A stretch of 64,000 nucleotides of DNA from Patescibacteria group bacterium (lineage in GTDB: Bacteria > Patescibacteriota > JABMPQ01 > JAQVVF01): NCBI GenBank assembly GCA_041662665.1, contig JBAZSC010000001.1:129511-193510 (forward strand), written 5' to 3'. Numbering within the stretch: position 1 is the stretch's first letter; every line of letters begins with the position of its first letter. The notes below the pieces were generated by a model. It was not told where the DNA came from. It saw nothing but the letters and a program-made list of their open reading frames with translations, and searched no databases. A program made the translations under genes and the position numbers. This document shows positions 4,922 to 48,278 of the stretch, piece by piece.

Positions 4922-4936
4922 TTCAGTCGAACTTTT

Positions 4937-4960: not shown

Positions 4961-4975
4961 ATTCAAAAATTAATA

Positions 4976-5004
4976 TTGACACATCGTTTAGATTTTGTTT
5001 TAAT
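4976..5004 (+). promoter_or_regulatory. sigma70-like promoter (cassette B): TTGACA - 17 nt - TTTAAT
   Basis: Consensus -35, 17-nt spacer, -10 TTTAAT, then the leader AGTACCTTGAGAGGAGG. Confidence 0.6.
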
Positions 5005-5032
5005 CTATACAGTACCTTGAGAGGAGGAAGCA

Positions 5033-13588: not shown

Positions 13589-14347
13589 ATGAAAAACTTT
13601 AAACCATTAGGGGAAATTTTTAGTTCAGCTTGGAAACAATTTGAAAAAAATTGGGGTAATTATGTTGGTCTATCAGCAATTTTCACTGTTGCTCAATTTG
13701 TGATTATTTTTGTCGTTGTTTTTTCAATGGTCTTCTTGCAACTAGCCGGTATTTTCGGAAGTATTCCATTAATGATCAATCAAGATTCAACAACAGCTGG
13801 TTTTGGCGGAATGATAATGATCATAACAGTTATCACAACATCTCTGCTCTTATTCATTGCTGTCTTCGGCCTAAGTTTTCTTATCAATGCTTGGTTGATG
13901 AGAACAATGATTACCCTTATTGCTAAAAAACAATCTGGCAGTTTAGATTTTGTTCAATTCATTAAATCTTGCTGGCCAAAAGTTTGGCGAGTATTTTTTG
14001 CTATGATTTTAATGATGCTAATTATTTTTGTAGGTTTCATTTGTTTTATTATTCCAGGTATTATTTTTGGTCTCTGGCTTTCTCAAGTCTTATTCCTAAT
14101 AATTTTAGAAGATTTATCAATTAGCGATGCCTTCAAAAAATCTAAAGAATTAGTTTCAGGCCACATAGGTACAGTCTTTCTCTATAATTTCGTTTTTATG
14201 TTAGTAATGGAAGTTGGGCTAATGGCAATTAATATAATCCCATTTTTAGGAACTTTAGCCATGCCTGTATTGAGCATTGTCATGATTCCTTTAATGACAA
14301 TTTTTCAATATCATATATTTTTAGAACTTAAAAAACTTAATGGTTAA
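13589..14347 (+). CDS. hypothetical polytopic membrane protein
   Basis: The track ORF starts at 13517 over promoter-like sequence, so the internal Met at 13589 (MKNFKPLGEIF) is more plausible. Six or more hydrophobic helices. Confidence 0.45.
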   Translation: MKNFKPLGEIFSSAWKQFEKNWGNYVGLSAIFTVAQFVIIFVVVFSMVFLQLAGIFGSIPLMINQDSTTAGFGGMIMIITVITTSLLLFIAVFGLSFLINAWLMRTMITLIAKKQSGSLDFVQFIKSCWPKVWRVFFAMILMMLIIFVGFICFIIPGIIFGLWLSQVLFLIILEDLSISDAFKKSKELVSGHIGTVFLYNFVFMLVMEVGLMAINIIPFLGTLAMPVLSIVMIPLMTIFQYHIFLELKKLNG

Positions 14348-14458
14348 ATTGCTGAACTGTTAAATTGTTAACTGCCAAATTGTTTAACCATTAAGCAATT
14401 TAGCAATCGAACAATTTAGCAATTAAGCAATTTAGCAATAATTAATTTAATTTAAAAT

Positions 14459-17400
14459 ATGCCTCAAACGCAAAAAACTGAAGTAAAAACAAGAAGTCGA
14501 ACCAGTCAAATTACTGGTGTCGTTGCAGCTGTTGTTGCAGCAATTGGTATCGGCGCCCTTATCTATTTTGCCGTTGTCAACTACAACACAAAAATAACAA
14601 CACAAACAGAATTTTCTGTTTTTGAACAAGAGTATCAGCCAAATGTTGAGCCAGTTTCTGCAATTGTAACTGATCAAAATCAACTCGCTGATGCACAAAC
14701 AAAATTGGATGCAATTAAAGGTGTTGTTACTCCTGTAATTGAACAACAAGCTCAAGATACCGGCACAACTCCTGGACAGATAATTGATGTTACCCAAAAA
14801 GATGCAATGATTGAATCTCTTTCTGACCAAGTTGTTTCCGAAACCGCAACAGAAATTAAAGATGAAGTTAACATTTTAATCGGCAAAGACGAGCTCGATT
14901 TTTCTCAAGCACAGGCTGCTGAAGATTATACGATGATAAAAGTATTTGGTGATCTGACTAACGCAACAGGCGGTACAGATACAACTAGTTCAGGTGTAAC
15001 CTTAACAGATGCTCAAAAGAATACACTTGATACAATTGCTGAAAATACTTCAACTGATACAACTCAAAAAATTACGGAAGGTTCTACAAAAATTGCTCGA
15101 GAAACTAGTGGCAATGAAAGTGAAATCAATAGCGAACTTACTGCTGAAGTTATCAGTATTTTTGGACAGGCAACTGATTTCACGCTTACTGGAACAAAAG
15201 ATGAATTTGCTGCAGCAGAAGCTCCAGCACCAAACGAAGTAACTCCAGATATCTGGTTTTGTAATTCTGAAAATAATTGTCAGCAATCAGAATATGCTAC
15301 TTTAGATAAATGTAAACTAGAAAAAGGCATAGACAAATGTTTTGAAGGCAACACTTGCGGTGATTGCAAACAAGCAGCTCCAGTAGATGAAAGAGTCCAT
15401 ACTTGCTCTCCTGATAATATTTGTATGCCATCAACTTTGTATCCTACTTTAGCGGATTGTGTGACAGCTATAGGTGCTGACAAATGTTTTGAAGGCAATA
15501 CTTGTGTTTGTCAAGCTACACCAGCAAATGAACCAGCTGCCAGTCAATTTCAATTATATTTTTGTTTAAATGGAAATTGGACATCTGATAGTTTTGGAGG
15601 TAACTCTATAGATGAAGCAAAACAAGTTTGTAGTACTGCCATAGGCAACCAATGCTTTATTGATTCAAGTGATCCAGGTCATGATGCCGCAAAAGAAGCT
15701 TGCAAGCCAGCAGTTGATGAGCCAGTAATCGATGAATCAGCATTTTGTGTTGATAATGCCTGTGTACCTGGCCCAATTAATGTAAAGTGTACTCCTCCAA
15801 ATTGCCCTGAACGTTTTGATAATATGGAAGCATGCAATCTTTCAGATTGCGAGCCAAAGCAAGAATATGTATACTGTGCAGAAACTGGTTGTTTAGCTGA
15901 AAGTTTTAGCAGTCAAGGCGAATGTGAAGCACAGCATATCGGCGCTAATTGCAAATTATCAACACCTGAATCTATACAAGAGTGTAGTGATGCTTGCATC
16001 AAGATGGAGCAAGATCAACAATATTACACTTGCGATAGAGACGTAAATCAATGCAAGGCAGTTCAAAATCTTGATGAATGTGAAGTTAATGGCGGTACCA
16101 AATATTGCACAACGAATAATGATTGTTGCAAAGCAAATGTAATTCCAGTTCAAAAACAATATTACTATTGCGATAAAAATGATAAAACTAATGGTTGTAA
16201 ACAAACAGAACTACTTGACTCCTTAGAAGCCTGTCAAAATGCGCATCCAGATGGTGGCTGTATAGCTGATGTTAAAAAAGCTATTTGCGATGAAACATGC
16301 AAGCCCGATCCAGTTTTAGATGTAATTGAAGACGAATGTCATAATAATTTGCCAAATGATCCTAAATGCTCATTGCAAGTAATTGACAAAATAGAAAATA
16401 AACCAACAGGTGAAATTACAGAATACAAATTATCAGTCACATCTTCAATTATTTATCGAGGTTTAGGCAGAGTTATTATGAAATTCTGGGCCAATCCAAA
16501 CGATCCAGTTAACTTTGAATATACAAAGCAAAAATTAGCTAATGATTTTAAAGACAATAAATTAAGAGTCAGATTTGGCGATAAAAAAGAAGATTTGTCT
16601 GATGTCCTAAAAGTTTACAAAGATCCAAGAAATCCAAACAAATATTATGCTATTGCTTATAAATTAAATATTGATAATCTTTGGCAAAATGATGATGGAA
16701 AATATAATAGCAAAAAATATTTTTATCAAGTCAATGCCGACAATAAAAAATCAGATTTCTTTGATTTCCAATCTTTGCAAAGAGGCGGAGAAGTTCTTTA
16801 TGTCAAAAACAGATTATATAATGGACATTATGATTTAAAAAAATATGGAACTATTGAATTAAATCTAAAAAATAGTGGACAACTTGCCGGCAATATAAAA
16901 ACCTTGAACAACAAATTGAAAAATTTCGAAAATGGCGGTGTTAATTTCTGGACGCAAACTTCAAAAGTTTCTCCTTATGGCTTGAGAACTGCAATGGCTG
17001 GAGATCAAAGATTCAAACAATATTTTAGCATTTTGAAAAATCTGCAAAAGAAAAATGATATTACAAAAGCTGTTCAAGTTCTTTACAATTATCATGATCG
17101 TCTAAAACCTGAAGATATTTATCGTCGTTATGATCAAGGCGGTGTTAATTATTGGGTTAAGCAAGTTAACAATGATAAATTGTCGTTCAGCAGTATGGTT
17201 ACTTATGTCATGCTAGGTACAGATGAGCCAAAAACAAATCTTACACAATTCTGGGGCACAGGAAAATTAGCTACTAGAAAAGCAGAAATCGAATTAGGCT
17301 TTGTTAAATCTTTAAGCCGAGGCATTACTCAAATGTCAGATATTGATCGATTCATGAATTCTTCCAAATATATTTCTTCTGCAAGCATTAGAGCAGATTT

Positions 17401-17653
17401 AAGAAATTCAGATGAATTCAGAAGATTGTTGAATGATGTTTATAAACGTGGTGAAGCATCTGACGCCATATCATTGTTATATATTGCTGATTTAGGAAGA
17501 CCAGTTGATCCAGATGGCCAGCCATTCTATGTCAACAAATTTAATCAACTTAGAAAAGATGGTCTAAACGCTACAGATGCTTTGAATGAAATTGATAAAG
17601 AATTAACGAGTAGTAAAGAATACAAAGATGCAATTGCAAGACCAATAAAGTAA
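14459..17653 (+). CDS. giant membrane-anchored Cys-rich secreted protein with a C-terminal DUF4214-like domain
   Basis: 1064 aa. N-terminal TM. Repeated Cys-rich modules (CFEGNTCGDCKQA / CFEGNTCVCQATPA and others). The C-terminal LLYIADLGRPVDPDGQPFYVNKFNQLRKDGLNATDALNEIDKELTSSKEYKDAI fits the DUF4214 consensus (LY..LGR..D..G..YW..L..G......F..S.EY). Paralogous to the next gene. Confidence 0.6.
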   Translation: MPQTQKTEVKTRSRTSQITGVVAAVVAAIGIGALIYFAVVNYNTKITTQTEFSVFEQEYQPNVEPVSAIVTDQNQLADAQTKLDAIKGVVTPVIEQQAQDTGTTPGQIIDVTQKDAMIESLSDQVVSETATEIKDEVNILIGKDELDFSQAQAAEDYTMIKVFGDLTNATGGTDTTSSGVTLTDAQKNTLDTIAENTSTDTTQKITEGSTKIARETSGNESEINSELTAEVISIFGQATDFTLTGTKDEFAAAEAPAPNEVTPDIWFCNSENNCQQSEYATLDKCKLEKGIDKCFEGNTCGDCKQAAPVDERVHTCSPDNICMPSTLYPTLADCVTAIGADKCFEGNTCVCQATPANEPAASQFQLYFCLNGNWTSDSFGGNSIDEAKQVCSTAIGNQCFIDSSDPGHDAAKEACKPAVDEPVIDESAFCVDNACVPGPINVKCTPPNCPERFDNMEACNLSDCEPKQEYVYCAETGCLAESFSSQGECEAQHIGANCKLSTPESIQECSDACIKMEQDQQYYTCDRDVNQCKAVQNLDECEVNGGTKYCTTNNDCCKANVIPVQKQYYYCDKNDKTNGCKQTELLDSLEACQNAHPDGGCIADVKKAICDETCKPDPVLDVIEDECHNNLPNDPKCSLQVIDKIENKPTGEITEYKLSVTSSIIYRGLGRVIMKFWANPNDPVNFEYTKQKLANDFKDNKLRVRFGDKKEDLSDVLKVYKDPRNPNKYYAIAYKLNIDNLWQNDDGKYNSKKYFYQVNADNKKSDFFDFQSLQRGGEVLYVKNRLYNGHYDLKKYGTIELNLKNSGQLAGNIKTLNNKLKNFENGGVNFWTQTSKVSPYGLRTAMAGDQRFKQYFSILKNLQKKNDITKAVQVLYNYHDRLKPEDIYRRYDQGGVNYWVKQVNNDKLSFSSMVTYVMLGTDEPKTNLTQFWGTGKLATRKAEIELGFVKSLSRGITQMSDIDRFMNSSKYISSASIRADLRNSDEFRRLLNDVYKRGEASDAISLLYIADLGRPVDPDGQPFYVNKFNQLRKDGLNATDALNEIDKELTSSKEYKDAIARPIK

Positions 17654-17663
17654 ATTATAAAAA

Positions 17664-17690
17664 AGGCGAGATCGAAAAAGATCTCGCCTT
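17664..17690. terminator. hairpin AAGGCGAGATC-gaaaaa-GATCTCGCCTT between the two paralogs
   Basis: Perfect 11-bp stem. Weak T tract. Confidence 0.45.
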
Positions 17691-17704
17691 AATATTCCAA
17701 TTAT

Positions 17705-20700
17705 ATGGAGGCAAAAAACAAATTTTATAGATTAATTGGGATTATAATTATTTTTTTAAGCATTGGAGCAATCGCTTATCTTTCATTTTCTAATTATTTT
17801 GGAAAAACTAAAATTAATAATTTTGGTGAAGATTATCCAGTTGATGAAATAAAAGATGCCAATGAAGAAAAACTCGAAGAACTAGTAGTATCTGCCCAAA
17901 AAACATTAGACCAGCAGATTAAAAATCAAGCGCCAGATACTTCAAAATCAGATCAAGAGATGATCCGAGAGCAAATTATCAATAAAATTTATAGTGAGAA
18001 TGTTAATGCTGAAGTTTTAGCACAAGAAAAAAATATTGCTCAATCCATATCTAATCAGTCAATTGCTCAGCTTAATAGCGAGATTGCTAGTGGAGGAAAC
18101 GATAATAATCAAAATTTAAATAGTAAAATTTTAGATTTAGCTGACAAGCTTTTTATTAAACAAAAAGCTAAAAAAACAGCTCAAGAAACTGTTAACGAGA
18201 TCAATGATGAAGTTACATCAGCAATTAATAATAGCAATTTAGATAGTCGTAAGCAAAGCAGCAGTGCAGTTAATATTATGCATGCAATAATTTTTGATGA
18301 TCCAAACCTTGCTTTTTCAAATGCCAGCAATAGCAAAGAAAAAAGAGCTTTGCAAGATATCTACAAAAATGCTTTGAATGATTCAAATAATAAAATTGAT
18401 AATAATCTATTAACTTTGAATAACCAGAATAACAAAGATGAATTTAATTATCAATTTAAAGAAAGCTTGAAACAAGTAGTTACAGTCGTCAAGCAAGATA
18501 CAAAAGTTAGGATGTCCAGTGCGCTTAGTGATAATGCTAAAAAAACAATTGCTGATCAAGTAGTTGCTGATTCCAATCCGAATAATTCTGCTGATCAAAT
18601 AATTGATTGCGCAAACAATGCAAATATTGAACAATGTTTAACAAAAGGCAATCAAAAACCAATTGCCGAACAAGTTAAACAAGTAGAACAAGTGACCCAA
18701 ACCATCAATAATACTTATGATAATCTTGATAATGAAAACGGTAAGATAATGAATCAAGAAGATAAACAAGAAATTATTGATACAACAATCAAAAAAACAA
18801 AAGAAGAAATAAAAAATCAACCGCTTGTTGAATATATTTGTACTTGCAAAGCGCCAGAAAATGTTTGCCAGTCAACTGGAAAAAATTATACTGACAAAGA
18901 TCAATGCGCAAATGAACAAGGAGGAGAATGTTTCGAGAGCTTAGATGCCTGTTATGGTTATTGCAAGCAACCAGCAACAGTAGAAGAAGAAACTGTTGCT
19001 ACTTGCACAAAACTAATCATATGTCACATTCCATCAGACAATCCAGAAAATCAGCAAGAGATTTGTGTTGCAGAATCAGCAGCCAAAGCGCATTATGCTC
19101 ATGGTGATTATGAAGGCTATTGTAAGACAGCCCCAACTAACGAGCCAGTCAATGAAAATACGAATACATCAAATGAAACTAATGAAAATATTAATACCAA
19201 CACAAATGAAATAGCTAATGAAAATGCAAATCAGCCTTTGAATGAGAATACGAATATTAATGAATCAACAAATCAAGTAGCTAATGAAAATACGAATATC
19301 AACATTAACACAAATCAAAACGTTAATGTCAACGAAAATACAAACGTTGTTACTAATGCAAACCAGAATACTAATCAATCGACAGGAGGAGGAATAGATG
19401 TTCCTAATGTCCCTCCGACAGACAATCCAGACCCAAATCAAAAACCACCTCTTGATATCCAGCCAGTAGAAAATGGAAATTTTTTTGCTTATTGTGATCG
19501 TGAAGTTGGACAATGCAGGACAGCAGAAAATATGTTTAAGGATGAAAATTCTTGTCTTTCTTCATTACAAAGTCAATTTCCTAACAAAAATATTACTGCC
19601 TGCATTCCTTTCGATTCAACCACACAATCTTATCCATGTTTAGAAAGTTGTACTAAAACAACTCCAGAAAATCAACAAATAAATGATTTAGAGAAAAGCT
19701 TGCATGATTATGTTGTCGAAAATCCAGTTTTTCTAAAAGAAGAAATTAATAAAATAAAAGAAGACATCACTGAAAAGACAATCAGAGTCTTTAATGAAAA
19801 GGTAAAACCTACCCCAATAGATCAGCAAAAACAAGATCAGATAGTCAACGATCTTAAAAATGAAATAAACCAACAAATTCAAGCCTTGCCAGAAAATGCA
19901 AGACCAAGCTACGAAGAAGTAATTGACAAATTAGCTCATAATGAATCTGATGAAATTTCACTTAAGGCTTGGATAGTTTACAAGGGGTTAGGTAGAGTAA
20001 TCTTGAAATTTGAAGAAAATGAATTTGATGTTTATAAAAAACTATATAGTGAGAATGTAATCAAATCAGCTTTTGACGCCGGAAATCTAAAATTTAAATT
20101 TGGTGAAAAAGCAGATGATCTAAAGTATGACTTCAAAATTTATAAGGACCAGAAAAGCGATCGTTTTTATGCTGTTGTCTATAATTTAGGTGAGGATAAT
20201 TTGGTGAATAAAGATAATGATCAATATGGTTCAAAAGAATATTATTTTCAAGTTGCTACAGATGAAAAGTTTTCTGAAATTTTCACTTTTAAATCTTTAA
20301 ATAGGGTTGGCGAGGCTTTGTATGATCAAAATAAATTATTTGGACAGAACCATGATTTAAAACGCTACGGCACTATTGCTTATGATTTCAACAAAGGCAG
20401 TCAAGAAAATAATTATATTAAAAAATCTGGCTTATCGTCCTACATTGATTCAAATGCAAGTCCTTATGGTCTAAAAACTGCCATGGCCAAAAGCCCAAAT
20501 TTCATAAACGCGTTAAAAAAAATCAATAACATTGATTCAATCAAAAAAGTCTATACAGGGTATGTTGATCTATTAATTCCTCAAGATATTTATTACCAAT
20601 ATAGCGAACCAACTGTAAAATATTGGGCAAACACTATTGCAAAAAAAGATCTCAATTTTAATTCTGTGGTACAAAATTTATTTTTCACTACCAAAGAGCA

Positions 20701-21112
20701 AGATTTAAATTTAATTGATTTTTGGAATAAACCGCAATATGCAACGATTGAGGACAGCTATCTAAAAACATTGAGGCGTGGTATCATATCAAATGATGAA
20801 ATTAATCAATTCCTAAATCAAGCAGAATATTCTTCTAAAGCATTAATCAGAGAAAAATTAAGATCTCAAGAAGAATATAGTCTTATTAAAAAACAGATTA
20901 TTAAACAAAAAGACAGTTCAATCTTAGCTTTTATTTTCTCCGCAGTTCTCGGCCGAGAAATTACTCCAAGAGAAAATAGCCATTATCTTGCCCAATATCA
21001 AAAGCTCGAAAAAGAAAAAGGCATGAATAAAGAAAAAGCTGCTGATAGAATAGAATCTGAATTAATTAATAGTTCTGAATATAAAAAAGAATTACAACAA
21101 ACAATAAAATAA
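17705..21112 (+). CDS. giant membrane-anchored Cys-rich secreted protein with an Asn-rich low-complexity tract and a C-terminal DUF4214-like domain (paralog)
   Basis: 1135 aa. N-terminal TM. Cys-rich centre. A NENTNT...NQNVNVNENTN low-complexity tract at about 19140-19390. The C-terminal region is homologous to the previous gene (YKGLGRVILKF.../YRGLGRVIMKF...) and ends in a DUF4214-like segment AVLGREITPRENSHYLAQYQKLEKEKGMNKEKAADRIESELINSSEYKKEL. Confidence 0.6.
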   Translation: MEAKNKFYRLIGIIIIFLSIGAIAYLSFSNYFGKTKINNFGEDYPVDEIKDANEEKLEELVVSAQKTLDQQIKNQAPDTSKSDQEMIREQIINKIYSENVNAEVLAQEKNIAQSISNQSIAQLNSEIASGGNDNNQNLNSKILDLADKLFIKQKAKKTAQETVNEINDEVTSAINNSNLDSRKQSSSAVNIMHAIIFDDPNLAFSNASNSKEKRALQDIYKNALNDSNNKIDNNLLTLNNQNNKDEFNYQFKESLKQVVTVVKQDTKVRMSSALSDNAKKTIADQVVADSNPNNSADQIIDCANNANIEQCLTKGNQKPIAEQVKQVEQVTQTINNTYDNLDNENGKIMNQEDKQEIIDTTIKKTKEEIKNQPLVEYICTCKAPENVCQSTGKNYTDKDQCANEQGGECFESLDACYGYCKQPATVEEETVATCTKLIICHIPSDNPENQQEICVAESAAKAHYAHGDYEGYCKTAPTNEPVNENTNTSNETNENINTNTNEIANENANQPLNENTNINESTNQVANENTNININTNQNVNVNENTNVVTNANQNTNQSTGGGIDVPNVPPTDNPDPNQKPPLDIQPVENGNFFAYCDREVGQCRTAENMFKDENSCLSSLQSQFPNKNITACIPFDSTTQSYPCLESCTKTTPENQQINDLEKSLHDYVVENPVFLKEEINKIKEDITEKTIRVFNEKVKPTPIDQQKQDQIVNDLKNEINQQIQALPENARPSYEEVIDKLAHNESDEISLKAWIVYKGLGRVILKFEENEFDVYKKLYSENVIKSAFDAGNLKFKFGEKADDLKYDFKIYKDQKSDRFYAVVYNLGEDNLVNKDNDQYGSKEYYFQVATDEKFSEIFTFKSLNRVGEALYDQNKLFGQNHDLKRYGTIAYDFNKGSQENNYIKKSGLSSYIDSNASPYGLKTAMAKSPNFINALKKINNIDSIKKVYTGYVDLLIPQDIYYQYSEPTVKYWANTIAKKDLNFNSVVQNLFFTTKEQDLNLIDFWNKPQYATIEDSYLKTLRRGIISNDEINQFLNQAEYSSKALIREKLRSQEEYSLIKKQIIKQKDSSILAFIFSAVLGREITPRENSHYLAQYQKLEKEKGMNKEKAADRIESELINSSEYKKELQQTIK

Positions 21113-21701: not shown

Positions 21702-21860
21702 AATATTTTAAAAGCCAGCAAAATAAAATGCTGGTTTTTTTAATTTAGTAATGATAAAATAATTTGACAAGTTAAATAAGTTAGACTAGTTAGACTTGTT
21801 AGATTAGTTCGTTAACTTATTTAACCAGTCTAACAAATCTAACCAGTCTAACAAATATTC

Positions 21861-22973
21861 ATGTATCTTTCTTCTCTTCAACTTAAAAATTTTCGCAATT
21901 ACAAAGATTTTGAATCAAGTTTCACCAATGGCTTGATTATTTTGACTGGCCAGAATGCTTCCGGAAAAACTAATTTATTAGAAGCAGTTGAATTATTGTC
22001 ATTATCAAAATCTTTTCGTGCCAGGTCAGAATACGATTTAATTTTATTTGGTATGGATTTCGCCAAAATTTTAGGAACATCACAGAAAAATAATCACCAA
22101 ACAAAATTAGATATTACTATTGATTCATTAACTTCCAAAAATCAAAAAGTAATTAAAATTGATGGTTTAAAAAGTCGCGCTTTTGATTTGATCGGCGAAT
22201 TAGTTACTGTACTTTTTTCTCCAGAAGATTTGAATTTAGTTAATTCAGCGCCACAACTTCGCCGACGTTATTTAGATGTTGTCATTTGCCAGATTAATAA
22301 AGACTATTGCCGAAATTTGTCCGAATACAAAAAAGTTTTAATTAATCGAAATCAGCTTTTAGCTAATATCAAAGATGGTTATGCAAAAAAAGAGGAATTA
22401 AGTTTTTGGAATGAAAAATTAATTGATTTAGGAACAAGGATTATTATCGAACGCCAAAAAACTTTACAATTTTTTAATACTAAATTGTCAGAAATTTACA
22501 ATGATATCTGCGATACTAAAGATCAAAAACTTCGTATAATTTATCTACCAAATTTGCCTTTGTTAAAAGATTCAGACATCAAAAAATTATTTGAACAAGA
22601 ATTAAATAATAAATACGAAAGAGAAATTTATAAAACTTACACTTTAGTTGGTCCGCATCGAGATAATTTTGTTTTTGAACTTAATAAAAAGAGATTAGCC
22701 ATCTTTGGTTCGCGAGGTGAATATCGCAGCGCAATATTAGCTTTAAAATCTGCAGAATTAGATTTTATTGAACAAAGCTTGGGAGAACGACCGATTCTTT
22801 TGCTTGATGATGTTTTTTCTGAATTAGATGAAAAAAGACGCAATCACATGTTTGATTTAGTCAGACGCCAGCAAACTTTTATCACTTCTGCTGATTTTGT
22901 CGGACTTGAAGTTGGTTTTGTTAGAGATGCGCAAGTACTTCAAATCAAAAATGGAGAAATAACGAATAAATAA
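21861..22973 (+). CDS. recF: DNA replication and repair protein RecF
   Basis: LQLKNFRNYKDFESSF...GQNASGKTNLLEAVELL (Walker A). SMC-like ABC ATPase, 370 aa. Confidence 0.85.
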   Translation: MYLSSLQLKNFRNYKDFESSFTNGLIILTGQNASGKTNLLEAVELLSLSKSFRARSEYDLILFGMDFAKILGTSQKNNHQTKLDITIDSLTSKNQKVIKIDGLKSRAFDLIGELVTVLFSPEDLNLVNSAPQLRRRYLDVVICQINKDYCRNLSEYKKVLINRNQLLANIKDGYAKKEELSFWNEKLIDLGTRIIIERQKTLQFFNTKLSEIYNDICDTKDQKLRIIYLPNLPLLKDSDIKKLFEQELNNKYEREIYKTYTLVGPHRDNFVFELNKKRLAIFGSRGEYRSAILALKSAELDFIEQSLGERPILLLDDVFSELDEKRRNHMFDLVRRQQTFITSADFVGLEVGFVRDAQVLQIKNGEITNK

Positions 22974-22974
22974 C

Positions 22975-23075
22975 AAAATCCAAATTCCAAACAAATCACA
23001 AATAACAAACGACAAATCGTCGATTTTGTAATTTGGATTTTGTAATTTGTTTGGAATTTGGTATTTGTAATTTAT
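22975..23075. repeat. intergenic composite palindrome, 'caaatcccaaat' family (copy 1)
   Basis: ccaaattccaaacaaatcacaaataacaaacgacaaatcgtcgattttgtaatttggattttgtaatttgtttggaatttgg is a long imperfect inverted repeat. The same sequence family recurs at 26252-26360, 37489-37612, 48279-48330/48700-48762 and 50612-50715. Confidence 0.7.
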
Positions 23076-23081
23076 TTCGAG

Positions 23082-24115: not shown

Positions 24116-24293
24116 ATATTAAAATTATAGCATAAATTTAGAAAATAGAAAACAGGAAACAGAAAAATAATCAAATTATTTGCTTTTGTTTTGACTTTAT
24201 TTAAAAAATATAGTAAAATCAGTAATTAGTAACTAGTAATTAGCAAACTTTCATCGTCTCTAGTTACTAGTTCCTAGTTACTAATTACTTTTA

Positions 24294-26252
24294 ATGAACA
24301 TATCAACTTTAGCAAAAAAATTAGGTTACCATAGCCAAGAAATGCGCAAGATGATTGAGGCAATGGGATATCGACTTCGACCAACAGCGTCGAAGATTTC
24401 TGATAAAAAAGCAAAAGAAATTACCAAAAAAGTAGAAAAGCTAGAAAAGGAAAAAACTCTAGAAATGAAAGAAGAACAGAAAAAAGTTGAAAAAGCCAAA
24501 GAACCAAAAAAACTTTATGTCGCCCAAACTATTACAGTTAAGGATTTCGCACAAGTTTTAGAAATGGAAGTTACTGATGTCATTAGACAATTGATCCAGG
24601 AAGGCATCATGGCAACAATCAATGAAGAAATTGATTTTGAAACAGCGAGTATTATTGCTGAAGAATTAGGCCATAAAATTGAATTAAAAAAAGAAGAAAA
24701 AGATTTGATTAAGGAAAAAGGAGTTCGCAAACAGATTCTCGAAGATTTATCTCATGAAGAAGAAAAGAATTTAAAGCCTCGTCCTCCAGTTGTTGTTGTC
24801 ATGGGTCACGTTGATCATGGCAAGACAAAATTATTGGATGTCATTCGCGAAACAAATATTATTGCTACTGAAGCAGGAGGTATTACTCAAAAAATCGGTG
24901 CTTATCAAGCAAAATGCAATGGCAAAGTCATTACGTTTTTAGATACTCCTGGTCACGAAGCTTTCAAAGCAATGCGCGAAAGAGGTGCAAAAGTTACTGA
25001 TATGGCAATTCTTGTTGTTGCAGCTGATGACGGTGTTATGCCTCAAACAGAAGAAGCAATTGCGCATGCCAAAAATGCTGGCGTGCCAATTATTGTTGCT
25101 ATCAACAAAATAGATAAAGAAGGTGCTGATCCAGAAAAAGTAAAAAGACAGCTCGCTGATTTAGGTTTGCAACCAGAAGATTGGGGAGGCGATACAATTA
25201 TGGTTGAAATATCTGCCAAAATGAATAAAAATATCGATAAGCTTTTAGAAATGGTTTTATTGCAAGCGGAAATTTTAGAATTAAAAGCCAACCAAGAATC
25301 AAAAGCCATAGGCACAATCATTGAAGCAAACAAAGATCCCAAAAAAGGTCCAGTTGCTACAGTTTTGATTCAAAATGGAACTTTGAATTTGGGCGATTAT
25401 GTTACTTGTGGCAGTATCTATGGAAAAATCAAGGCAATGGAAAATTTCTTAGGCAAAAGAATAAATCATGCTAAGCCATCAACTCCAGTTCAAATTTTAG
25501 GTCTTACAGCAGTTCCAGATTCTGGCGATATTTTGCAAGAAGAAAAATCCAAAGAAGCAGCTCGAGAAAAAATTGCCAAAATCGCAAAAGCAGAAATCAA
25601 GATTAAACGCAATTTGACTCCAGAAGAAGAAAGAAAAATTAAAAAATTAAATATAATTTTAATTGCTGATTTTTATGGATCTCTTGAAGCAATTATTGAT
25701 GAGCTAAACAAAATCAATTCCAAGCAAGTTATGCCTCAAATCATTGATTATTCTGCTGGCAAGATTACTGAATCAAATGTCATGAATGCTCAATCTTCAA
25801 ATGCAATTATTTTTGGTTTTAATTCTAAGCCAACAACTGTTGCATCTCGTCTTGCCGAAGATAAGCATGTCAAAATATTTTCCTACGATATTATTTACGA
25901 ATTAATTGACGAAATCAAAAAACAATTGAGTTCTTTGATCGAGCCAGAAGTCATTAAGACAAAATTAGGCAAACTTAATGTTTTAGCAATTTTCAGATCT
26001 GAAAAGAAAAGAAAAATTATTGGCGGCAGAGTCTTGTCTGGCTTCCTAGCAAAAGATTCAATTGTAAAAATAATCAGAGAAGATGTAGAAATTGGCCAAG
26101 GAAAAATTACTACTGTTCAAAAAAATATGGCTGATGTACAAAAGGTAGAAGCAGGTTCAGAATGTGGAATGTCAATTGATACGACTGTCAAAGTTAAAGA
26201 AGGTGACGTGATTGAAGCTTGGAAAGAAGAAATCAAAAAAATCACTTTATAA
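24294..26252 (+). CDS. infB: translation initiation factor IF-2
   Basis: G-domain VVVVMGHVDHGKTKLLD, DTPGHEAF and NKIDK motifs. 652 aa with a short N-terminal region. Confidence 0.9.
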   Translation: MNISTLAKKLGYHSQEMRKMIEAMGYRLRPTASKISDKKAKEITKKVEKLEKEKTLEMKEEQKKVEKAKEPKKLYVAQTITVKDFAQVLEMEVTDVIRQLIQEGIMATINEEIDFETASIIAEELGHKIELKKEEKDLIKEKGVRKQILEDLSHEEEKNLKPRPPVVVVMGHVDHGKTKLLDVIRETNIIATEAGGITQKIGAYQAKCNGKVITFLDTPGHEAFKAMRERGAKVTDMAILVVAADDGVMPQTEEAIAHAKNAGVPIIVAINKIDKEGADPEKVKRQLADLGLQPEDWGGDTIMVEISAKMNKNIDKLLEMVLLQAEILELKANQESKAIGTIIEANKDPKKGPVATVLIQNGTLNLGDYVTCGSIYGKIKAMENFLGKRINHAKPSTPVQILGLTAVPDSGDILQEEKSKEAAREKIAKIAKAEIKIKRNLTPEEERKIKKLNIILIADFYGSLEAIIDELNKINSKQVMPQIIDYSAGKITESNVMNAQSSNAIIFGFNSKPTTVASRLAEDKHVKIFSYDIIYELIDEIKKQLSSLIEPEVIKTKLGKLNVLAIFRSEKKRKIIGGRVLSGFLAKDSIVKIIREDVEIGQGKITTVQKNMADVQKVEAGSECGMSIDTTVKVKEGDVIEAWKEEIKKITL

Positions 26253-26360
26253 ATCCCAAATCCCAAAAAACAAACAAATAACAAATTACAAATCACAATC
26301 CGTCGACTTTGTAATTTGTTATTTGGGATTTGTTTGGAGTTTAGAATTTGTAATTTTACG
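26252..26360. repeat. intergenic composite palindrome, 'caaatcccaaat' family (copy 2)
   Basis: aaatcccaaatcccaaaaaacaaacaaataacaaattacaaatcacaatccgtcgactttgtaatttgttatttgggatttgtttgg, lying between infB and rbfA. Confidence 0.7.
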
Positions 26361-26693: not shown

Positions 26694-26811
26694 GAGAATC
26701 TAGAATCTTGAATTTAGAATCTAGAATAGAATAATGAATTCAGAATTTAAGAATTCTATATTCCTTATTCTATATTCATTCCAGATTCCAGATTCTAAAT
26801 TCCAGATTCTC

Positions 26812-27795
26812 ATGTTTAAATTTATCGACATTCAAATAAATCGCGCATTATATTTAATCAAAAAAGCAGAAAATATCCTGATTATTTGCCATCGCAAGCC
26901 GGATGCTGATACTATTGGATCTGCATTAGCTTTGGGTGATATTTTAGAAAAACAAAATAAAAAAATTGAATACGCTTGCCAGGATCAAATCCCTAGCAAG
27001 TTTTTTTTCCTAAAAAATGCCGACAAAATAAAAAAGATTGATGAAATTTTAAAGAATTTTATTAATTACAAGTTACTAATTACTTTGGATTGTGGAAGTT
27101 TCGAACAGACAGGTCTACACAACTTTTTTAGCATCAATGAATTTAAAACGCCTATCATAAATATTGATCATCATCATGATAATCCGCATTACGGAAAACT
27201 CAATATTATTGAAGCTAATGCCTCTTCAACTTCAGAAATTGTCCACAATTTTTTGCTAAAAATGAATGTTGATTTAGATAAAAATATTTCAACAAGTTTA
27301 TTAAATGGAATTTTTGGCGATACTGATAGTTTCAAAAATCCAAATACATCTCATGACACTTTAAAAACAACATCAGACCTTTTGGCATCAGGTGCAAATT
27401 TAAAAGAAATTACCAAAAATACTTTGCAAGACAAATCTTTGTCAACTTTAAGACTTTGGGGTAAGATATTGTCAGATATAAAAAAGAACAAAAAACTTGG
27501 CATAGTTTATGCTGTCATTACTAAAAAAGATTTGCAAGAATGCAACGCCAAATCAGAAGATTTAGAAGGCATTGCCAACTTTTTAAATTCAATTCCAGAT
27601 GTTAAGGCCTCATTAGTTTTATCAGAAAATGAAAAAGGCGAGATCAAAGGTTCATTTCGAACTTTGCATGATCATATTGATGTCTCAAAGTTAGCTCGCA
27701 GTTTAGGTGGCGGAGGACATAAAAAAGCTGCTGGATTTACATTGCCTGGCAGATTAATAAAAGAAGATAATGAAATCAAAATAAATCTCGAGTAA
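26812..27795 (+). CDS. nrnA: DHH/DHHA1 phosphoesterase NrnA-like (nanoRNase / pAp phosphatase)
   Basis: ILIICHRKPDADTIGSALAL, IDHHHDNP (DHH motif) and GGGGHKKAAGF (DHHA1 GGGH motif). The internal Met at 26812 (MFKFIDIQ) was chosen because the track start lies inside an intergenic palindrome. Confidence 0.7.
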   Translation: MFKFIDIQINRALYLIKKAENILIICHRKPDADTIGSALALGDILEKQNKKIEYACQDQIPSKFFFLKNADKIKKIDEILKNFINYKLLITLDCGSFEQTGLHNFFSINEFKTPIINIDHHHDNPHYGKLNIIEANASSTSEIVHNFLLKMNVDLDKNISTSLLNGIFGDTDSFKNPNTSHDTLKTTSDLLASGANLKEITKNTLQDKSLSTLRLWGKILSDIKKNKKLGIVYAVITKKDLQECNAKSEDLEGIANFLNSIPDVKASLVLSENEKGEIKGSFRTLHDHIDVSKLARSLGGGGHKKAAGFTLPGRLIKEDNEIKINLE

Positions 27796-28276
27796 AATTA
27801 ATAAAATAAGTAAAATTAATAAAACGACGAAATAAAAACAAAAAAATGGCAAAAATAAATCGAATAGAAGATTTAGATGCATGGCAAGAGGCAAGAAAAC
27901 TTTGTCAAGGAATATATCTTATTACAAATCATTTTCCAAAATATGAACTTTATAATATTATGAAGCATTTGAGAGAAAATGGTCGAGGAGTACCTGCTAA
28001 TATTGCAGAAGGATTTGGCAGATATTTTTTCAAGGAAAAATTAAGATTTTATGGAATAGCTAAGGGTTGTTTAGAAGAGATGAGAAATGATATTTATTTA
28101 TCTTATGACAGTAAATATATTAACAAAGAAATATTCAACAAATTTATCAATCAGATTAATAAAGTTTGCAAACAAATTAATGGACTGATTTCTATTACCC
28201 TTCAATTTATGAAAAAGCATTAAAAATTTCTATTAATTTTATTTCTTATTAATTTTACTAATCTTACTTATTTTAC
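27793..28276 (+). mobile_element. IVS-like element: four-helix-bundle gene carried inside an intergenic inverted repeat
   Basis: Left arm gtaaaattaataaaataagtaaaattaataaaa (about 27793-27825) and right arm ttctattaattttatttcttattaattttactaatcttacttatttta (about 28228-28276) are mutually inverted. They flank the CDS 27846..28223. Confidence 0.45.
27846..28223 (+). CDS. four-helix-bundle protein (family typically encoded in 23S rRNA intervening sequences)
   Basis: LDAWQEARKLCQGIYLITNHFPKYELYNIMKHLRENGRGVPANIAEGFGRYFFKEKLRFYGIAKGCLEEM carries the family hallmarks FP..E.Y.L..Q.RR...S...NIAEG.GR......FL.IA.GS..E. Confidence 0.65.
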   Translation: MAKINRIEDLDAWQEARKLCQGIYLITNHFPKYELYNIMKHLRENGRGVPANIAEGFGRYFFKEKLRFYGIAKGCLEEMRNDIYLSYDSKYINKEIFNKFINQINKVCKQINGLISITLQFMKKH

Positions 28277-28281: not shown

Positions 28282-29043
28282 ATGTTCAGCAGCATTTCTG
28301 CATATTTTTCCACATTTACATTAATAGATTATATTACAACAATTTTAGACATTGGAATTGTTGCTGTTTTGATTTACTTTGCTTTCGCATTTGTCAAAGG
28401 TACTAAAGCTACAAGAATAATTTATGGCATAATAATTTTAAGTGTTGTTGTAGTTATTGGCAGATTACTAAATTTGCAAACTTTGAATTGGGTCTTGTCG
28501 CATTTAACATTATTAATTTTAGTCGCTATACCAGTTGTCTTTCAGCCAGAATTAAGAAGAGCTCTAGAGAGATTAGGCCGTGCCAATATTTTTGGCAAAA
28601 CAAAAAAAGAGTCAACAAAAATCAACGATATTATTGAAGCAATTGAAATTTTAAAGAAAAACAGAATTGGCGCATTAATAGTAATTCAAAGAAAAACTGG
28701 CTTATTAGAATATGTTGAATCAGGAACAGAGCTAAATGCTAATTTATCAATTGCATTATTGCTAAATATTTTCTTTCCAAATTCTCCATTGCATGACGGT
28801 GCAGTCATAATTTTAGGCAACAAGATTCTAGCTGCTGGCTGTATGTTGCCACTTACAGAAGGCGAATATTCAATGACCTACGGCACTCGCCACAAAGCAG
28901 CAATTGGCGTTACCGAAAATACAGATGCCATTGCCTTAGTTGTTTCTGAAGAAAGAGGCGAGGTCTCGATTGCCATTGACGGACATTTGGAGGAAAAAGT
29001 TGGAACGGAAAAATTAGCGAATAAGCTTGAACAGCTTGTTTAG
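28282..29043 (+). CDS. cdaA: diadenylate cyclase CdaA (c-di-AMP synthase)
   Basis: N-terminal TM helices. DAC-domain motifs HDGAVIILGNKI and GTRHKAAIGVTE (cf. DGA / RHRAA). Confidence 0.85.
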   Translation: MFSSISAYFSTFTLIDYITTILDIGIVAVLIYFAFAFVKGTKATRIIYGIIILSVVVVIGRLLNLQTLNWVLSHLTLLILVAIPVVFQPELRRALERLGRANIFGKTKKESTKINDIIEAIEILKKNRIGALIVIQRKTGLLEYVESGTELNANLSIALLLNIFFPNSPLHDGAVIILGNKILAAGCMLPLTEGEYSMTYGTRHKAAIGVTENTDAIALVVSEERGEVSIAIDGHLEEKVGTEKLANKLEQLV

Positions 29044-29157
29044 AATTTTCAATTACCAATTTCCAATTTTCAAATAATATTCAATGGACAATTTTCATTG
29101 GAAATTGATCATTGGTAATTGATTGTAAATTGATAATTGGAAATTGAAAATTATTTT

Positions 29158-34103: not shown

Positions 34104-34233
34104 ATATAAACATGAAGATATTACGGAAATTATTGATCAAAAACAATATCCTAATATCTTAATATCCGAATATCTAACAAGTTTGTACTGAAAAAACGAT
34201 TTTGATATTACGGATATTAATAAAATTTATAAT

Positions 34234-34873: not shown

Positions 34874-35662
34874 ATGATAATTTTATTCTTCGGTGATATC
34901 GTTGGCAGAGCTGGTCGTTCTGCAATTAAAAAAATATTACCAGAACTAAAAACTAAATATAATCCAGATTTAATAATTGCTAATGGCGAAAATCTTGCCC
35001 ATGGTCTTGGTATTACAAAAAAAACAGTTCAAGAAGTTTTAGATTCAGGTGTTGATGTTTTAACATCTGGAAATCATATTTATGACAAGACAGAAGGCAT
35101 TGAAATGTTACAGCAAGATAGTAATTTGCCAATTATCAGACCAGCAAACTACCCATTAGATAATCCAGGCAAAAGATATATCATTAAACAAGTTCGGACT
35201 AAAAAAGTTTTGATCACAAATGTTTTAGGCCGAGTTTTTATCAAAGAAGATTTAGATTGTCCATTTAAGACAATTGATAAAATTTTAGAAGAAAATAAAA
35301 ATGAAAAAATAGATTTCAGTATCGTTGATTTTCACAAAGAAGCAACTTCAGAAGTCAAAGCTTTAGGTTTTTATTTAGATGGCAAAGTCTCGGTAGTACT
35401 AGGCACTCATACTCATGTTCAAACTTCTGATGAACAAATTTTAGAAAAAGGAACTGCTTATATTTCTGATGTTGGCATGGTTGGACTAAAGGATTCTGTT
35501 TTAGGCGTTCAAAAAGAAAAAGTTATTGATCAATTCTTGACTCAAATGCCTCATCGATGGGAAGTTGATGAAAGCGGAAAATGCATAATCAATGCTGTTG
35601 TCCTTAATTTTGAAAACGACAAAAAAACAATCACAAGAATTAATGAAGAAGTAGAGATCTAA
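34874..35662 (+). CDS. ymdB: YmdB-like metallophosphoesterase (TIGR00282 family; 2',3'-cyclic-nucleotide phosphodiesterase)
   Basis: MIILFFGDIVGRAGRSAIKKILPELKTKYNPDLIIANGENLAHGLGIT...GNH...GTHTHVQTSDEQILEKGTAYISDVGMVG closely parallels B. subtilis YmdB. Located in the rny neighbourhood. Confidence 0.85.
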   Translation: MIILFFGDIVGRAGRSAIKKILPELKTKYNPDLIIANGENLAHGLGITKKTVQEVLDSGVDVLTSGNHIYDKTEGIEMLQQDSNLPIIRPANYPLDNPGKRYIIKQVRTKKVLITNVLGRVFIKEDLDCPFKTIDKILEENKNEKIDFSIVDFHKEATSEVKALGFYLDGKVSVVLGTHTHVQTSDEQILEKGTAYISDVGMVGLKDSVLGVQKEKVIDQFLTQMPHRWEVDESGKCIINAVVLNFENDKKTITRINEEVEI

Positions 35663-35829
35663 TTTCTAATTTCTATTAAATTTTCAATGAATAATTTCTA
35701 AACGCAGAGCTAATTGCTCTGTTTTAAATTGTTCTTTGCGCTAAAATAAGTTAAAATAACACTAAGGTTTTAAAATTTATAATTAGAAATTTAATAAAAA
35801 TTGAAAATTGAAAATTGTAATACAAATTT

Positions 35830-36897: not shown

Positions 36898-36965
36898 GAA
36901 AGTTATTAACAAGTTATCATTTGCTATTATCTTTTGGCTTACTTATAATAAAAACATACAAATCT

Positions 36966-37085
36966 AAAAACAAATGTCATCCTGAGCCAAAGCTTCGGAT
37001 CCCGAGAATAAGAAAATAATTACGGGATTCTTCCTGCCCGCAGTGCTACAGCGTTGCAGGCGGGCGGCTTTGGCCTCAGAATGAC
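36966..37085. repeat. GC-rich nested hairpin element (copy 1 of 2)
   Basis: The outer stem is gtcatcctgagccaaagc...gctttggcctcagaatgac and the inner stem ggatcccg...cgggattc. It also contains cctgcccgc..gcgggcgg. A second copy with the same outer and inner stems lies at 60553-60630. Confidence 0.55.
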
Positions 37086-37142
37086 GCGAAATTTTTCATT
37101 TTGCATTTATAATTTTTAATTTTTTGAGAGGTGGTGATAATT

Positions 37143-37424: not shown

Positions 37425-37488
37425 GATTTTATTTTTATATATTTAAAAAGGCGAGAATCAATTCTCGTCTTTTTTAAAAAACCAAAAA

Positions 37489-37612
37489 AAATCCCAAATA
37501 CCAAATCCCAAACAAATTACAATAACCAAATTACAAAATTTTAAGAATAAGTTTTGTGATTTGTAATTTGTTAATTGTTTGGAATTTGGGATTTGTAATT
37601 TCGACGTTTAAT
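37489..37612. repeat. intergenic composite palindrome, 'caaatcccaaat' family (copy 3)
   Basis: atcccaaataccaaatcccaaacaaattacaataaccaaattacaaaatttt...gttttgtgatttgtaatttgttaattgtttggaatttgggatttgtaattt. Confidence 0.7.
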
Positions 37613-37627
37613 TGTTAAAATCATTTC

Positions 37628-42990: not shown

Positions 42991-43148
42991 AATTAATAAA
43001 ATAGTTTTAGTCAGTTTCTGTGTTTTCTGCGTTAGATTCTGCGTCATTCTGCGAAAACGTTTTAAGCGCAGAAAAACGCAGAATCTAACGCAGAGTCAAA
43101 AATTTTTATAACAAAATTTTTGACGCAGAAAAAATAGCCACAATCAAC

Positions 43149-46835: not shown

Positions 46836-46949
46836 TTTCCAATTAACAATTTCCAATTTTCAATAAATTACCAATTTTCAATTTACAATGAATTCTCGCA
46901 GTTTTGAAAATTGGTTATTGGAAATTTATTGTAAATTGGTCATTGAAAA

Positions 46950-47393: not shown

Positions 47394-47533
47394 TCATAAA
47401 TGATCAATTTCCAATTCTCAATTTTCAATAAGTTGCCAATGAACAATTTTCAATGGCTACTTCGTAAGTTTTGAAAATTGGTTAATTGATAATTTATTGG
47501 AAATTGTAAATTGATAATTGAAAATTAAAACTG

Positions 47534-48277: not shown

Positions 48278-48278
48278 A

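Follow-up and report, generated by a model that had tools for sequence, protein, structure and literature searches.

Paired tandem-repeat arms around four-helix-bundle genes in intergenic spacers of a Patescibacteria group bacterium and of bacteria from many phyla

Two four-helix-bundle genes and the repeats that enclose them

The DNA stretch considered here, referred to below as the window, comprises 64,000 nucleotides (64 kb; 31% G+C) from a Patescibacteria group bacterium (assembly GCA_041662665.1, contig JBAZSC010000001.1), and it carries two genes for four-helix-bundle (4HB) proteins of the family that is known from the intervening sequences (IVSs) of 23S rRNA. The first of these open reading frames (ORFs) encodes 125 aa and extends from position 27846 to 28223, and the second encodes 121 aa and extends from 48331 to 48696; both of them, like their flanking arms and the neighbouring genes described below, lie on the + strand. 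Based on profile scores above the curated cut-offs across the domain, both are assigned to PF05635 (E 2e-29 and 102.2 bits for copy 1, E 5e-17 and 62.6 bits for copy 2; cut-off 33.8) and to TIGR02436 (90.2 and 82.3 bits, respectively; cut-off 24). The two proteins are ~26% identical to each other, and the closest solved relative of copy 2 is PDB 2rld (sequence match E 2e-18), an entry with five chains. Searches by tblastn with 104 family members revealed neither a third copy or remnant in the window nor any 4HB remnant within the loops of the ORF-less hairpins that are described below. As the same stretch was retrieved letter-identical in an independent JGI assembly, the genes and their flanking repeats are not an assembly artefact.

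Each 4HB gene, together with its flanking repeats (the whole being termed a cassette here), fills the spacer between two co-directional genes. Cassette 1 is located between an nrnA-like DHH/DHHA1 gene (26734-27795) and cdaA (DAC domain; 28282-29043). Its 5' arm (27791-27824) begins at the stop codon of the nrnA-like gene, consists of A, G and T only, and has a period of ~9 nt with the unit GTAAAATTAATAAAATAA present twice; its 3' arm (28228-28276), which is reverse-complementary to this sequence, stops 5 nt short of the cdaA start. The best ungapped pairing of these arms (27792-27822 with 28246-28276) covers 31 nt with 87% complementarity, and the inverted-repeat score has a z of 6.7-8.6 relative to shuffled flanks. 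Cassette 2 is found in a PrgI/TraC/VirB4 cluster resembling a type-IV-secretion operon, where it separates the gene for a TraC-like protein (PF26593, 247 aa; 47534-48277) from that for a VirB4-type ATPase (48769-50603). Its 5' arm (48278-48330) directly follows the TraC-like stop codon, extends up to the start of the 4HB ORF and is composed of G-free heptamers (viz. AAATCCC, AAATCCC, AAATTCC, AAACAAA, TTACAAA, TCACAAA and so on), and the reverse-complementary 3' arm (48697-48757) ends 11 nt before the VirB4 ATG at 48769. In this case, the paired segments (48281-48329 and 48709-48757) cover 49 nt with 88% complementarity and a z of 24 against shuffled flanks. The period of the copy 2 arms is 7 nt. 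The first-pass annotation had described both genes as sitting inside long inverted repeats and had named a repeat motif for each, and both statements are borne out: GTAAAATTAATAA has three exact copies in the window, every one of them within the copy 1 arms, and the core CAAATYCCAAACAAAT has 11 matches where 0.81 are expected, nine of which lie within the copy 2 arms and four ORF-less hairpins.

The anatomy of both cassettes is the same, viz. a 5' arm made of tandem repeats, a promoterless 4HB ORF of ~120 aa, and a 3' arm reverse-complementary to the first. The individual arms use a three-letter alphabet and do not fold upon themselves (minimum free energies of the four single flanks 0, -0.7, 0 and -1.3 kcal/mol), whereas in the whole cassettes they pair with each other in the minimum-free-energy and centroid structures alike (cassette 1, -83.8 kcal/mol, z -2.8; cassette 2, -92.1 kcal/mol, z -5.6). 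The resulting AT-rich stems of 30-50 bp reach to within ~6 nt of the start codon and enclose a loop of ~400 nt (380-420 nt), in which the 4HB gene is the only ORF and which holds essentially nothing else, a transposase or recombinase gene included. When 51 window genes were compared for upstream/downstream complementarity, ranks 1 and 3 went to the two 4HB genes; rank 2 was held by PrgI, but this gene is bracketed by two complete self-folding hairpins of one family and not by the two halves of a split hairpin. No intrinsic terminator (a short G+C-rich stem followed by a T run) is present on the + strand at either cassette, and no Rfam family, rRNA included, matches the window or a cassette. 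A sigma-70-like pair (TTGGAA, 16 nt, TATAAT; 10 of 12 positions matching) is found at 48735-48762 in the 3' arm of cassette 2, just 5' of VirB4. Arms of this kind could provide promoters to downstream genes, but promoter-like matches are common in this AT-rich DNA.

It had also been proposed that copy 2 had inserted into the VirB4 gene. This is ruled out, since the 247-aa ORF upstream is a conserved, stand-alone TraC-like gene: PF26593 constitutes a separate gene of 210-270 aa in 120 of 120 cases among the matches listed, it is likewise separate in relatives that have no cassette at this place, and the VirB4 ORF starting at 48769 aligns from residue 1 with orthologues of 611-612 aa. The VirB4 gene of the window is affected by a different change, a 1-nt deletion at ~50295 leading to a frameshift; in this region (50290-50300) the window reads ...ATTTCTCAGATGTT..., where intact orthologues encode ISQDVNDF. 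The VirB4 proteins of relatives are uninterrupted (611-612 aa) and 95-96% identical to that of the window, and the frameshift marks either a pseudogene or an error in the assembly consensus. With regard to the gene preceding cassette 1, a heptamer hairpin of GAATCTA units (26694-26811) overlaps the longest nrnA-like ORF over its first ~25 codons; a Met further downstream (MFKFIDIQ...) is probably the true start, and the N-terminus of the mechanical ORF call is likely hairpin sequence.

The two cassettes are not the only places in the window where such repeats occur. Nearly every spacer contains a long hairpin with arms of 30-55 nt built from short-period units, usually without G or without C, but lacking an ORF. 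The unit length is 7 nt in 12 of the 17 hairpins catalogued, and the unit families across the spacers are many, of 7, 8, 9 or 12 nt. ORF-less hairpins of the same repeat families as the cassette arms occupy like spacers, in some cases the very same one. On the + strand, four of them form one family with the copy 2 arms through the common core CAAATYCCAAACAAAT, viz. three of AAATCCC type at 22965-23076, 26247-26353 (in the infB/rbfA spacer) and 37483-37614, and a fourth at 50615-50710 in the spacer between VirB4 and the next gene, 24 nt of which are identical to the 5' arm of cassette 2. Hairpins of an AATTTCC family, likewise on the + strand, are located at 46833-46959, between a gene for a 473-aa protein and PrgI, and at 47404-47521, between PrgI and the TraC-like gene, and one of a GTTAGAC family is located, also on the + strand, at 21778-21852. 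Further periodic hairpins are present in spacers at 3329-3416, 14342-14440, 24221-24289, 29044-29152, 34160-34225, 35661-35809, 43026-43094, 51410-51559 and 54987-55115. With at least 17 such hairpins in 64 kb, as compared with 22 in 758 kb of other loci, their density in the window is about ten times higher.

Some other features of this DNA were also noted. CG-bearing words (TCGTCGA, CGTCGAC, CGACG, TCGACG) recur at the loops or arm ends of hairpins (23014-23024, 26296-26307, 27826-27832, 37605-37612), and in this CG-poor genome their recurrence is either a signal or chance. A second palindromic element, which is G+C-rich and unrelated to the heptamer hairpins, is present in two copies (36960-37090 and 60552-60633) having in common GTCATCCTGAGC...GGATCCC / GGGATTCTTC...GCTCAGAATGAC. 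Two very large adjoining ORFs (14459-21112; 1064 and 1135 aa) gave no Pfam match at E 1e-5 or better; the Pfam scan, upon which the statements below regarding domains in the window are also based, covered 42 window proteins, among them the products of nearly all ORFs of ~190 aa or more.

Occurrence in relatives and turnover at orthologous spacers

The generality of this arrangement was examined for 80 loci from GTDB species representatives (77 of them usable) encoding relatives of copy 2 with 46-66% identity, from Patescibacteria, Bacteroidota, Planctomycetota, Omnitrophota, Chloroflexota, Deltaproteobacteria and others. When the 150 nt upstream of a gene were compared with the 150 nt downstream, an inverted-repeat score of at least 30 was obtained for 58% of the 77 4HB genes, whereas among 568 neighbouring ORFs the proportion was 3.3% (Mann-Whitney p 7e-27); the loci had been picked with two peptide patterns belonging to a single subfamily, so that the value of 58% should not be read as a count over the family at large. 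Of the 20 "controls" that scored best, ten are themselves additional PF05635 genes, from other subfamilies and with other arm motifs. The autocorrelation at lag 7 is 0.44-0.48 in the flanks versus 0.28 in coding sequence, and in 55 of the 77 loci a lag of 7 or 14 gives the highest value. The strand asymmetry is fixed, with 47% A and 12% G in the upstream arm and 46% T and 8% C in the downstream arm, and each 4HB ORF has the same arm type upstream. AT-rich heptamer arms are retained even in planctomycete and Dehalococcoidia genomes of 55-61% G+C (loci L080, L068 and L059). The median values for these relatives are an arm of 35 nt, a loop of 401 nt and an ORF of 120 aa, with the 5' arm ending 6 nt before the start codon, and their stems reach up to 80 bp. 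The upstream neighbour is co-oriented with the 4HB gene in 66 of 72 loci and both neighbours are so in 51 of 66, against a same-strand background of 70%; the 4HB start follows the upstream stop codon at a median of only 56 nt. The ORF itself has a dN/dS of 0.06-0.11, indicative of strong purifying selection. In the subfamily of copy 1, all 6 of 6 members are flanked by inverted repeats, in this case with GTTA-type units of 8-9 nt.

The same architecture is seen in finished genomes of cultured organisms. On cyanobacterial and Chlorohelix plasmids, 12 of 16 4HB copies show a z of at least 10, and many copies are preceded by perfect arrays such as (AATTCGC)4, (AATTCGT)4 or (AAGTCGG)n, whose reverse complement follows right after the stop codon; plasmids with inverted perfect heptamer arrays of this kind include those of Nostoc, Anabaena, Dolichospermum and Planktothrix. 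Several of these genes are located within defence loci, viz. in Anabaena cylindrica pANACY.01 (L100), Nostoc sp. TCL26-01 (L124), Pseudanabaena (L127), Planktothrix (L103), Chlorohelix (L105 and L128) and Dolichospermum (L120), at positions between cas2 and cas1 (antisense to both), beside cas1, between a DISARM drmD gene and a gene for an MmeI-type enzyme, between a DUF1156 gene and a Swt1 HEPN gene, and between a helicase gene and a methylase gene. Additionally, a type-IV-pilus-like cluster in a Parcubacteria population (L109-L117) encodes, two genes 3' of a 4HB gene of the standard 121-aa size, a 317-aa protein matching both PF05635 and bAvd (~4265-5218), which may be a tandem or fused form. 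Other small ORFs were also found inside strong inverted repeats, viz. a DUF559 endonuclease-like gene (L024:2100-2660), one for a 95-aa GIY-YIG protein (L077:9326-9613) and gatC (L043:10007-10315); the arms at these loci are not heptamer-array-like, and gatC is bracketed by a 93-nt G+C-rich inverted repeat ending ...GCGGGATGACAA.

The spacers of the PrgI/TraC/VirB4 cluster can be compared directly with those of two close relatives, L081 and L083, whose proteins are 86-88% (PrgI), 87-94% (TraC-like) and 95-96% (VirB4) identical to those of the window. Between PrgI and the TraC-like gene (site A), the window has the ORF-less hairpin at 47404-47521, and both L081 and L083 have a 4HB cassette. Between the TraC-like gene and VirB4 (site B), the window and L081 have a cassette and L083 has an ORF-less hairpin. 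Following VirB4, L081 has a third cassette (129 aa), and ORF-less hairpins are present in the window and L083. In the more distant L086, all three spacers are short, the first with only a small hairpin and the second unstructured. At every orthologous spacer the arm families of the window, L081 and L083 are unlike, and the proteins of cassettes sharing a spacer are a mere 40-47% identical, so that by these comparisons the cassettes at orthologous spacers of close relatives are non-orthologous. Further, the site A protein of L083 is closest to the site B protein of L081 (64%) and not to that of L081 site A, which indicates that replacement, rather than divergence in situ, has taken place.

A different pattern is seen for copy 1. 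An orthologue of this gene is present in the same nrnA/cdaA spacer of L108, where CdaA is 85%, NrnA 77% and the 4HB protein 67% identical to those of the window. Its 80-nt arms belong to the GTTAGAC family, of which the window hairpin at 21778-21852 is also a member; the unit and the length of the arms have changed relative to copy 1 but their pairing has been kept. This site was found through the copy 1 homologue, and a metagenome scan with CdaA for orthologous nrnA/cdaA sites retrieved, apart from an identical sequence of the same organism, a single distant locus.

Over a set of 104 cassettes, the 6-mer similarity of the arms correlates with protein identity (Spearman 0.51; in a Mantel test 0 of 500 permutations reach this value) and shows no rise or fall that follows the difference in host G+C. 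Judged by this correlation, arms and ORF co-diverge, and as arm similarity follows the protein and not base composition, with arms being kept also in genomes that are high in G+C or poor in hairpins, the arms appear to travel with the gene. Two paralogues that are 75% identical (L101 and L102) have different repeat units. A core is common to hairpins and arms within the genome of the window, but the termini are not conserved across loci. Among the closest protein pairs (73-85% identity), 12 of 15 are located among unrelated genes, some of them in different phyla; the remaining 3 are syntenic, and in these the 4HB gene is conserved equally to or more than its neighbours. The first-pass annotation had suggested a unit of mobile character, and this view finds support in the above results, as orthologous spacers contain non-orthologous cassettes, ORF-less hairpins or nothing. 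With regard to the empty sites for which it advised a search at orthologous loci, ORF-less hairpins or spacers without a cassette do occur in relatives, but the hairpins are not homologous between them.

Interpretation of the cassettes

Based on these observations, the interpretation that we favour, and which we hold to be somewhat better than an even prospect, is that each 4HB gene is the cargo of an IVS-type cassette that hitchhikes in operons, in which arms and ORF are inherited and exchanged as one unit and the stem probably undergoes processing. According to this interpretation, the cassette would be transcribed through read-through from the host operon, and the 4HB ORF would be translatable only before the 3' arm has been synthesized, as afterwards the stem would bury the start region. 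The finished duplex would then be cut by RNase III, by analogy with the 23S rRNA IVSs of Coxiella, Leptospira and Salmonella, and such a cut would make the insert tolerable in rRNA and in polycistronic mRNA alike. The unit moving or exchanged between genomes would consist of the arms together with the ORF, and the 4HB protein would serve the element and not the neighbouring genes. The ORF-less hairpins would be either cassette derivatives that have lost their cargo or a resident form which the cassette replaces. Because ORF-less hairpins occupy the same spacers in relatives, it is possible that an incoming cassette replaces a resident hairpin, for example by recombination through similar repeat arms.

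Several results weigh against this interpretation. Among 271 stem mismatches, 35 are of the sense type and 52 of the antisense type, so that there is no sense-strand excess of G.U pairs; due to this, the pairing of the arms may be maintained at the DNA level, by copying from arm to arm or by recent duplication, rather than by selection on the RNA. No RNase III gene and no recombinase or other enzyme able to move the unit were found within the window. No target-site duplication is seen at the three orthologous spacers compared, no identical cassette was seen at two different sites, and one protein of the family (P0105), present on 24 contigs, has the same neighbours in 10 of 10 cases among the matches listed, with no sign of recent transposition. 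No relative was found in the viral contigs of IMG/VR, and among GenBank phage records just two, unannotated, have relatives. In ~40% of the relatives the arms are weak or one-sided, and ORF-less hairpins are dense in this lineage only. Lastly, the 4HB gene of some cyanobacterial plasmids lies between cas2 and cas1 in antisense orientation, a position in which it cannot be expressed by read-through from its neighbours.

One other explanation is that the hairpins are resident features of the host, acting as processing sites, stabilisers or terminators, and that a naked 4HB gene inserts at their apex, so that the arms belong to the host. The presence of long periodic hairpins in nearly every spacer of the window, the ORF-less hairpins in the same spacers of relatives, the sharing of 24 nt between the cassette 2 arms and a hairpin 1.9 kb downstream within a window family of five members, and a cassette 2 loop consisting almost solely of the ORF are all as this explanation would lead one to expect. 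However, the arms of the 104 cassettes follow protein similarity and not host composition, and they remain AT-rich in genomes of 55-61% G+C and also where ORF-less hairpins are ten times rarer. The orientation of the ORF relative to the arm type is fixed, which random entry into a symmetric hairpin would not yield, and the non-homology of the hairpins at orthologous spacers, despite flanking proteins that are 86-96% identical, shows that they are not stable host features. We therefore consider this explanation unlikely, and the related proposal of the first-pass annotation, that the gene targets or recruits pre-existing palindromes, is contradicted by the co-divergence of arms and protein and by the presence of arms in genomes poor in ORF-less hairpins.

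It is less probable still that the cassettes are DNA transposons, with the arms as terminal inverted repeats, the 4HB protein as a mobility or accessory factor, and the ORF-less hairpins as copies, similar to miniature inverted-repeat transposable elements, that are mobilised in trans. Orthologous sites at which the unit is present, absent or replaced, the occurrence of similar proteins in contexts and phyla that are unrelated, a near-identical ORF-less family within one genome, purifying selection on an ORF with no functional link to its neighbours, and the lack of the G.U signature of RNA-level selection would all be in accordance with such an element, as would the old proposal of Ralph and McClelland, in the form in which it is cited in PMC4990558, that the IVS ORF is a component of mobility. 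On the other hand, no nuclease or recombinase fold is known for a helical bundle of 120 aa, and the relatives whose structures are solved form toroidal pentamers. The missing target-site duplications and the failure to see one cassette at two sites, noted above, speak against this possibility as well, and the same is true of arms that lack conserved termini, range from 20 to 80 nt and differ in unit between the L101 and L102 paralogues. The strong co-orientation with host transcription is also unexpected for an element that acts as DNA only.

An equally improbable explanation is that nothing is mobile and that the cassettes are regulatory modules formed in situ, in which spacer hairpins beneficial to the host for mRNA processing or stability undergo, with or without the ORF, fast heptamer slippage and arm-to-arm correction and the 4HB protein acts in trans on all hairpins of this kind. 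The copy 1 cassette, which is kept at nrnA/cdaA in L108 with arms that have changed and yet still pair, is what such a module would produce, and the degree of 4HB conservation in the three syntenic pairs, the retention of many copies by these genomes of 0.6 Mb, the variable number of heptamers among Coxiella strains, and the effect of heptamer repeats of Nostoc upon the expression of downstream genes (bioRxiv 10.1101/2022.06.06.494920) are consistent with it. However, cassettes sharing a spacer that are 40-47% identical between neighbours that are 86-96% identical, the crosswise relationship of the L081 and L083 proteins, and the unrelated contexts of 12 of the 15 closest pairs are difficult to reconcile with divergence in place. 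Finally, chance complementarity of low-complexity flanks, which the 31% G+C of the window and the very AT-rich arms of copy 1 with their z of only 6.7-8.6 might suggest, is rejected by the shuffle controls, the ranking within the window, the contrast of 58% with 3% for neighbouring ORFs and the replication in finished genomes of cultured cyanobacteria.

A more specific proposal regarding the role of the protein, which we put forward tentatively and with no great expectation, is that a ring-shaped pentamer of the 4HB protein attaches to about five consecutive repeats on one single-stranded arm (5' or 3'), one for each subunit, in a manner comparable to TRAP and its GAG repeats. Such binding would decide whether the stem forms and, hence, would control processing by RNase III, cassette translation and the expression of the neighbouring cistrons. 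A median arm of 35 nt corresponds to five heptamers, and the solved relatives are pentamers; this is suggestive, but it should be viewed as a coincidence only, as far as binding of the protein to its own repeats is concerned.

Relation to known systems and significance

The first-pass annotation had likened the cassettes to rRNA IVSs, and this comparison is well founded. In the 23S IVS of Coxiella, the inverted repeats at the termini pair into a 28-bp stem, three or four tandem GACAGAT heptamers, their number varying between strains, directly precede the start of the S23p ORF, and the RNase III cut within the stem is at the first heptamer (PMC4990558). IVSs carrying an S23p/PF05635 ORF, in 23S or 16S rRNA (Leptospira, Coxiella, Brucella, Xanthomonas), have the same family in a loop enclosed by an inverted-repeat stem, and the Coxiella-type heptamers upstream of the ORF are matched by the units of 7 nt in copy 2 and ~9 nt in copy 1. 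PF05635 ORFs are also reported in rRNA insertions of candidate phyla radiation bacteria (CPR; PMC11270868), and IVSs are sporadic in their distribution and are regarded as selfish or horizontally acquired (PMC4990558; PMC11270868). However, the cassettes of the window lie between protein-coding genes (nrnA/cdaA and TraC-like/VirB4), and the window contains no rRNA; cleavage by RNase III has been demonstrated for the rRNA cases only; and the Coxiella ORF is decaying and probably untranslated, whereas the cassette ORFs have a dN/dS of ~0.1.

The arms also resemble the intergenic heptamer repeats of cyanobacteria (short tandemly repeated repetitive sequences, STRR), Beggiatoaceae, Nostoc and Bacteroidetes, which are found beside start codons, vary between strains and are without an assigned function or binding partner (PMC4679880; bioRxiv 10.1101/2022.06.06.494920). 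Head-to-tail intergenic units of 7 nt are present in the cassettes as well, imperfect in the window and perfect on the cyanobacterial plasmids, but the accessible literature describes STRR as direct repeats, with no link to PF05635 or to long-range pairing. The canonical STRR units (CCCCAGT, TTGGTCA and CAACAGT) are also not those of the cassettes.

Among dispersed palindromes that resemble miniature inverted-repeat transposable elements, the Correia/NEMIS elements of Neisseria and the ERIC elements of enterobacteria are imperfect palindromes of ~100-150 nt in transcribed spacers. They are transcribed together with the adjoining genes, form hairpins in mRNA that are processed by RNase III or RNase E, and are polymorphic between strains in being present or absent. 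These elements have a conserved sequence, defined termini and target duplications, whereas the arms of the cassettes are tandem repeats that vary from site to site, and to our knowledge no ORF-bearing form of them with a 4HB gene exists. The REPIN-RAYT system shares with the cassettes a single "master" gene flanked by hairpin repeats that are also scattered through the genome in ORF-less form. However, RAYT is an HUH/Y1 transposase with a known chemistry on single-stranded DNA hairpins and REPs are conserved sequences, whereas the 4HB protein is an Avd-like helical bundle lacking a catalytic motif, and its repeats are tandem heptamers and not REPs. The resemblance of PF05635 to Avd, the accessory protein of diversity-generating retroelements, has been described (PMC10053308): the fold and family are homologous, Avd is pentameric and basic and binds nucleic acid and the reverse transcriptase, and some 4HB relatives also match PF22296 (bAvd), but the window 4HB proteins fall below the bAvd profile. 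No reverse transcriptase (among the 42 proteins compared with Pfam) and no template or variable repeat is found beside either 4HB gene or elsewhere in the window, and a diversity-generating retroelement is rejected for lack of a reverse transcriptase domain. TIGR arrays, which consist of tandem 36-nt dual-spacer units beside a gene for the Nop-domain protein Tas (PMC12045711), are also rejected, as the period of the cassettes is 7-9 nt and no Nop/Tas domain occurs among the scanned ORFs.

Taken singly, IVSs that carry S23p ORFs, 4HB genes standing alone and heptamer repeats in intergenic DNA are already known. In the accessible literature, which is incomplete, no description was found of the packaging of 4HB genes in inverted and tandem repeats outside rRNA, of its phylum-wide conservation, of the link to STRR-like repeats, or of the polymorphism of cassettes and hairpins at orthologous spacers; the curators of TIGR02436 may have noticed part of this. 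PF05635 genes occur in defence, CRISPR-adaptation and secretion operons, and a published screen has listed "23S rRNA IVP" as associated with CRISPR adaptation modules (PMC10910872). This association may reflect hitchhiking cassettes, and the PF05635 genes in operons of all three kinds are probably such cassettes; hence, listings based on guilt by association, in which PF05635 appears as a component of these systems, should be interpreted with caution.

The architecture described here brings together in one three old puzzles that had been dealt with apart from each other, viz. the ORF-bearing rRNA IVSs and their spread, the role of the abundant 4HB genes, and the purpose of intergenic heptamers. 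It extends from CPR genomes of 0.6 Mb to plasmids of Nostoc, and culturable, genetically tractable carriers of it exist. If the tentative proposal of repeat binding were true, PF05635 proteins would be the long-sought partner of STRR and other heptamers (cyanobacteria, Beggiatoaceae, Bacteroidota) and of the ORF-less hairpins of CPR bacteria, and the rRNA IVSs would then be a special case, one landing site used by a general system made up of a protein and its repeats.

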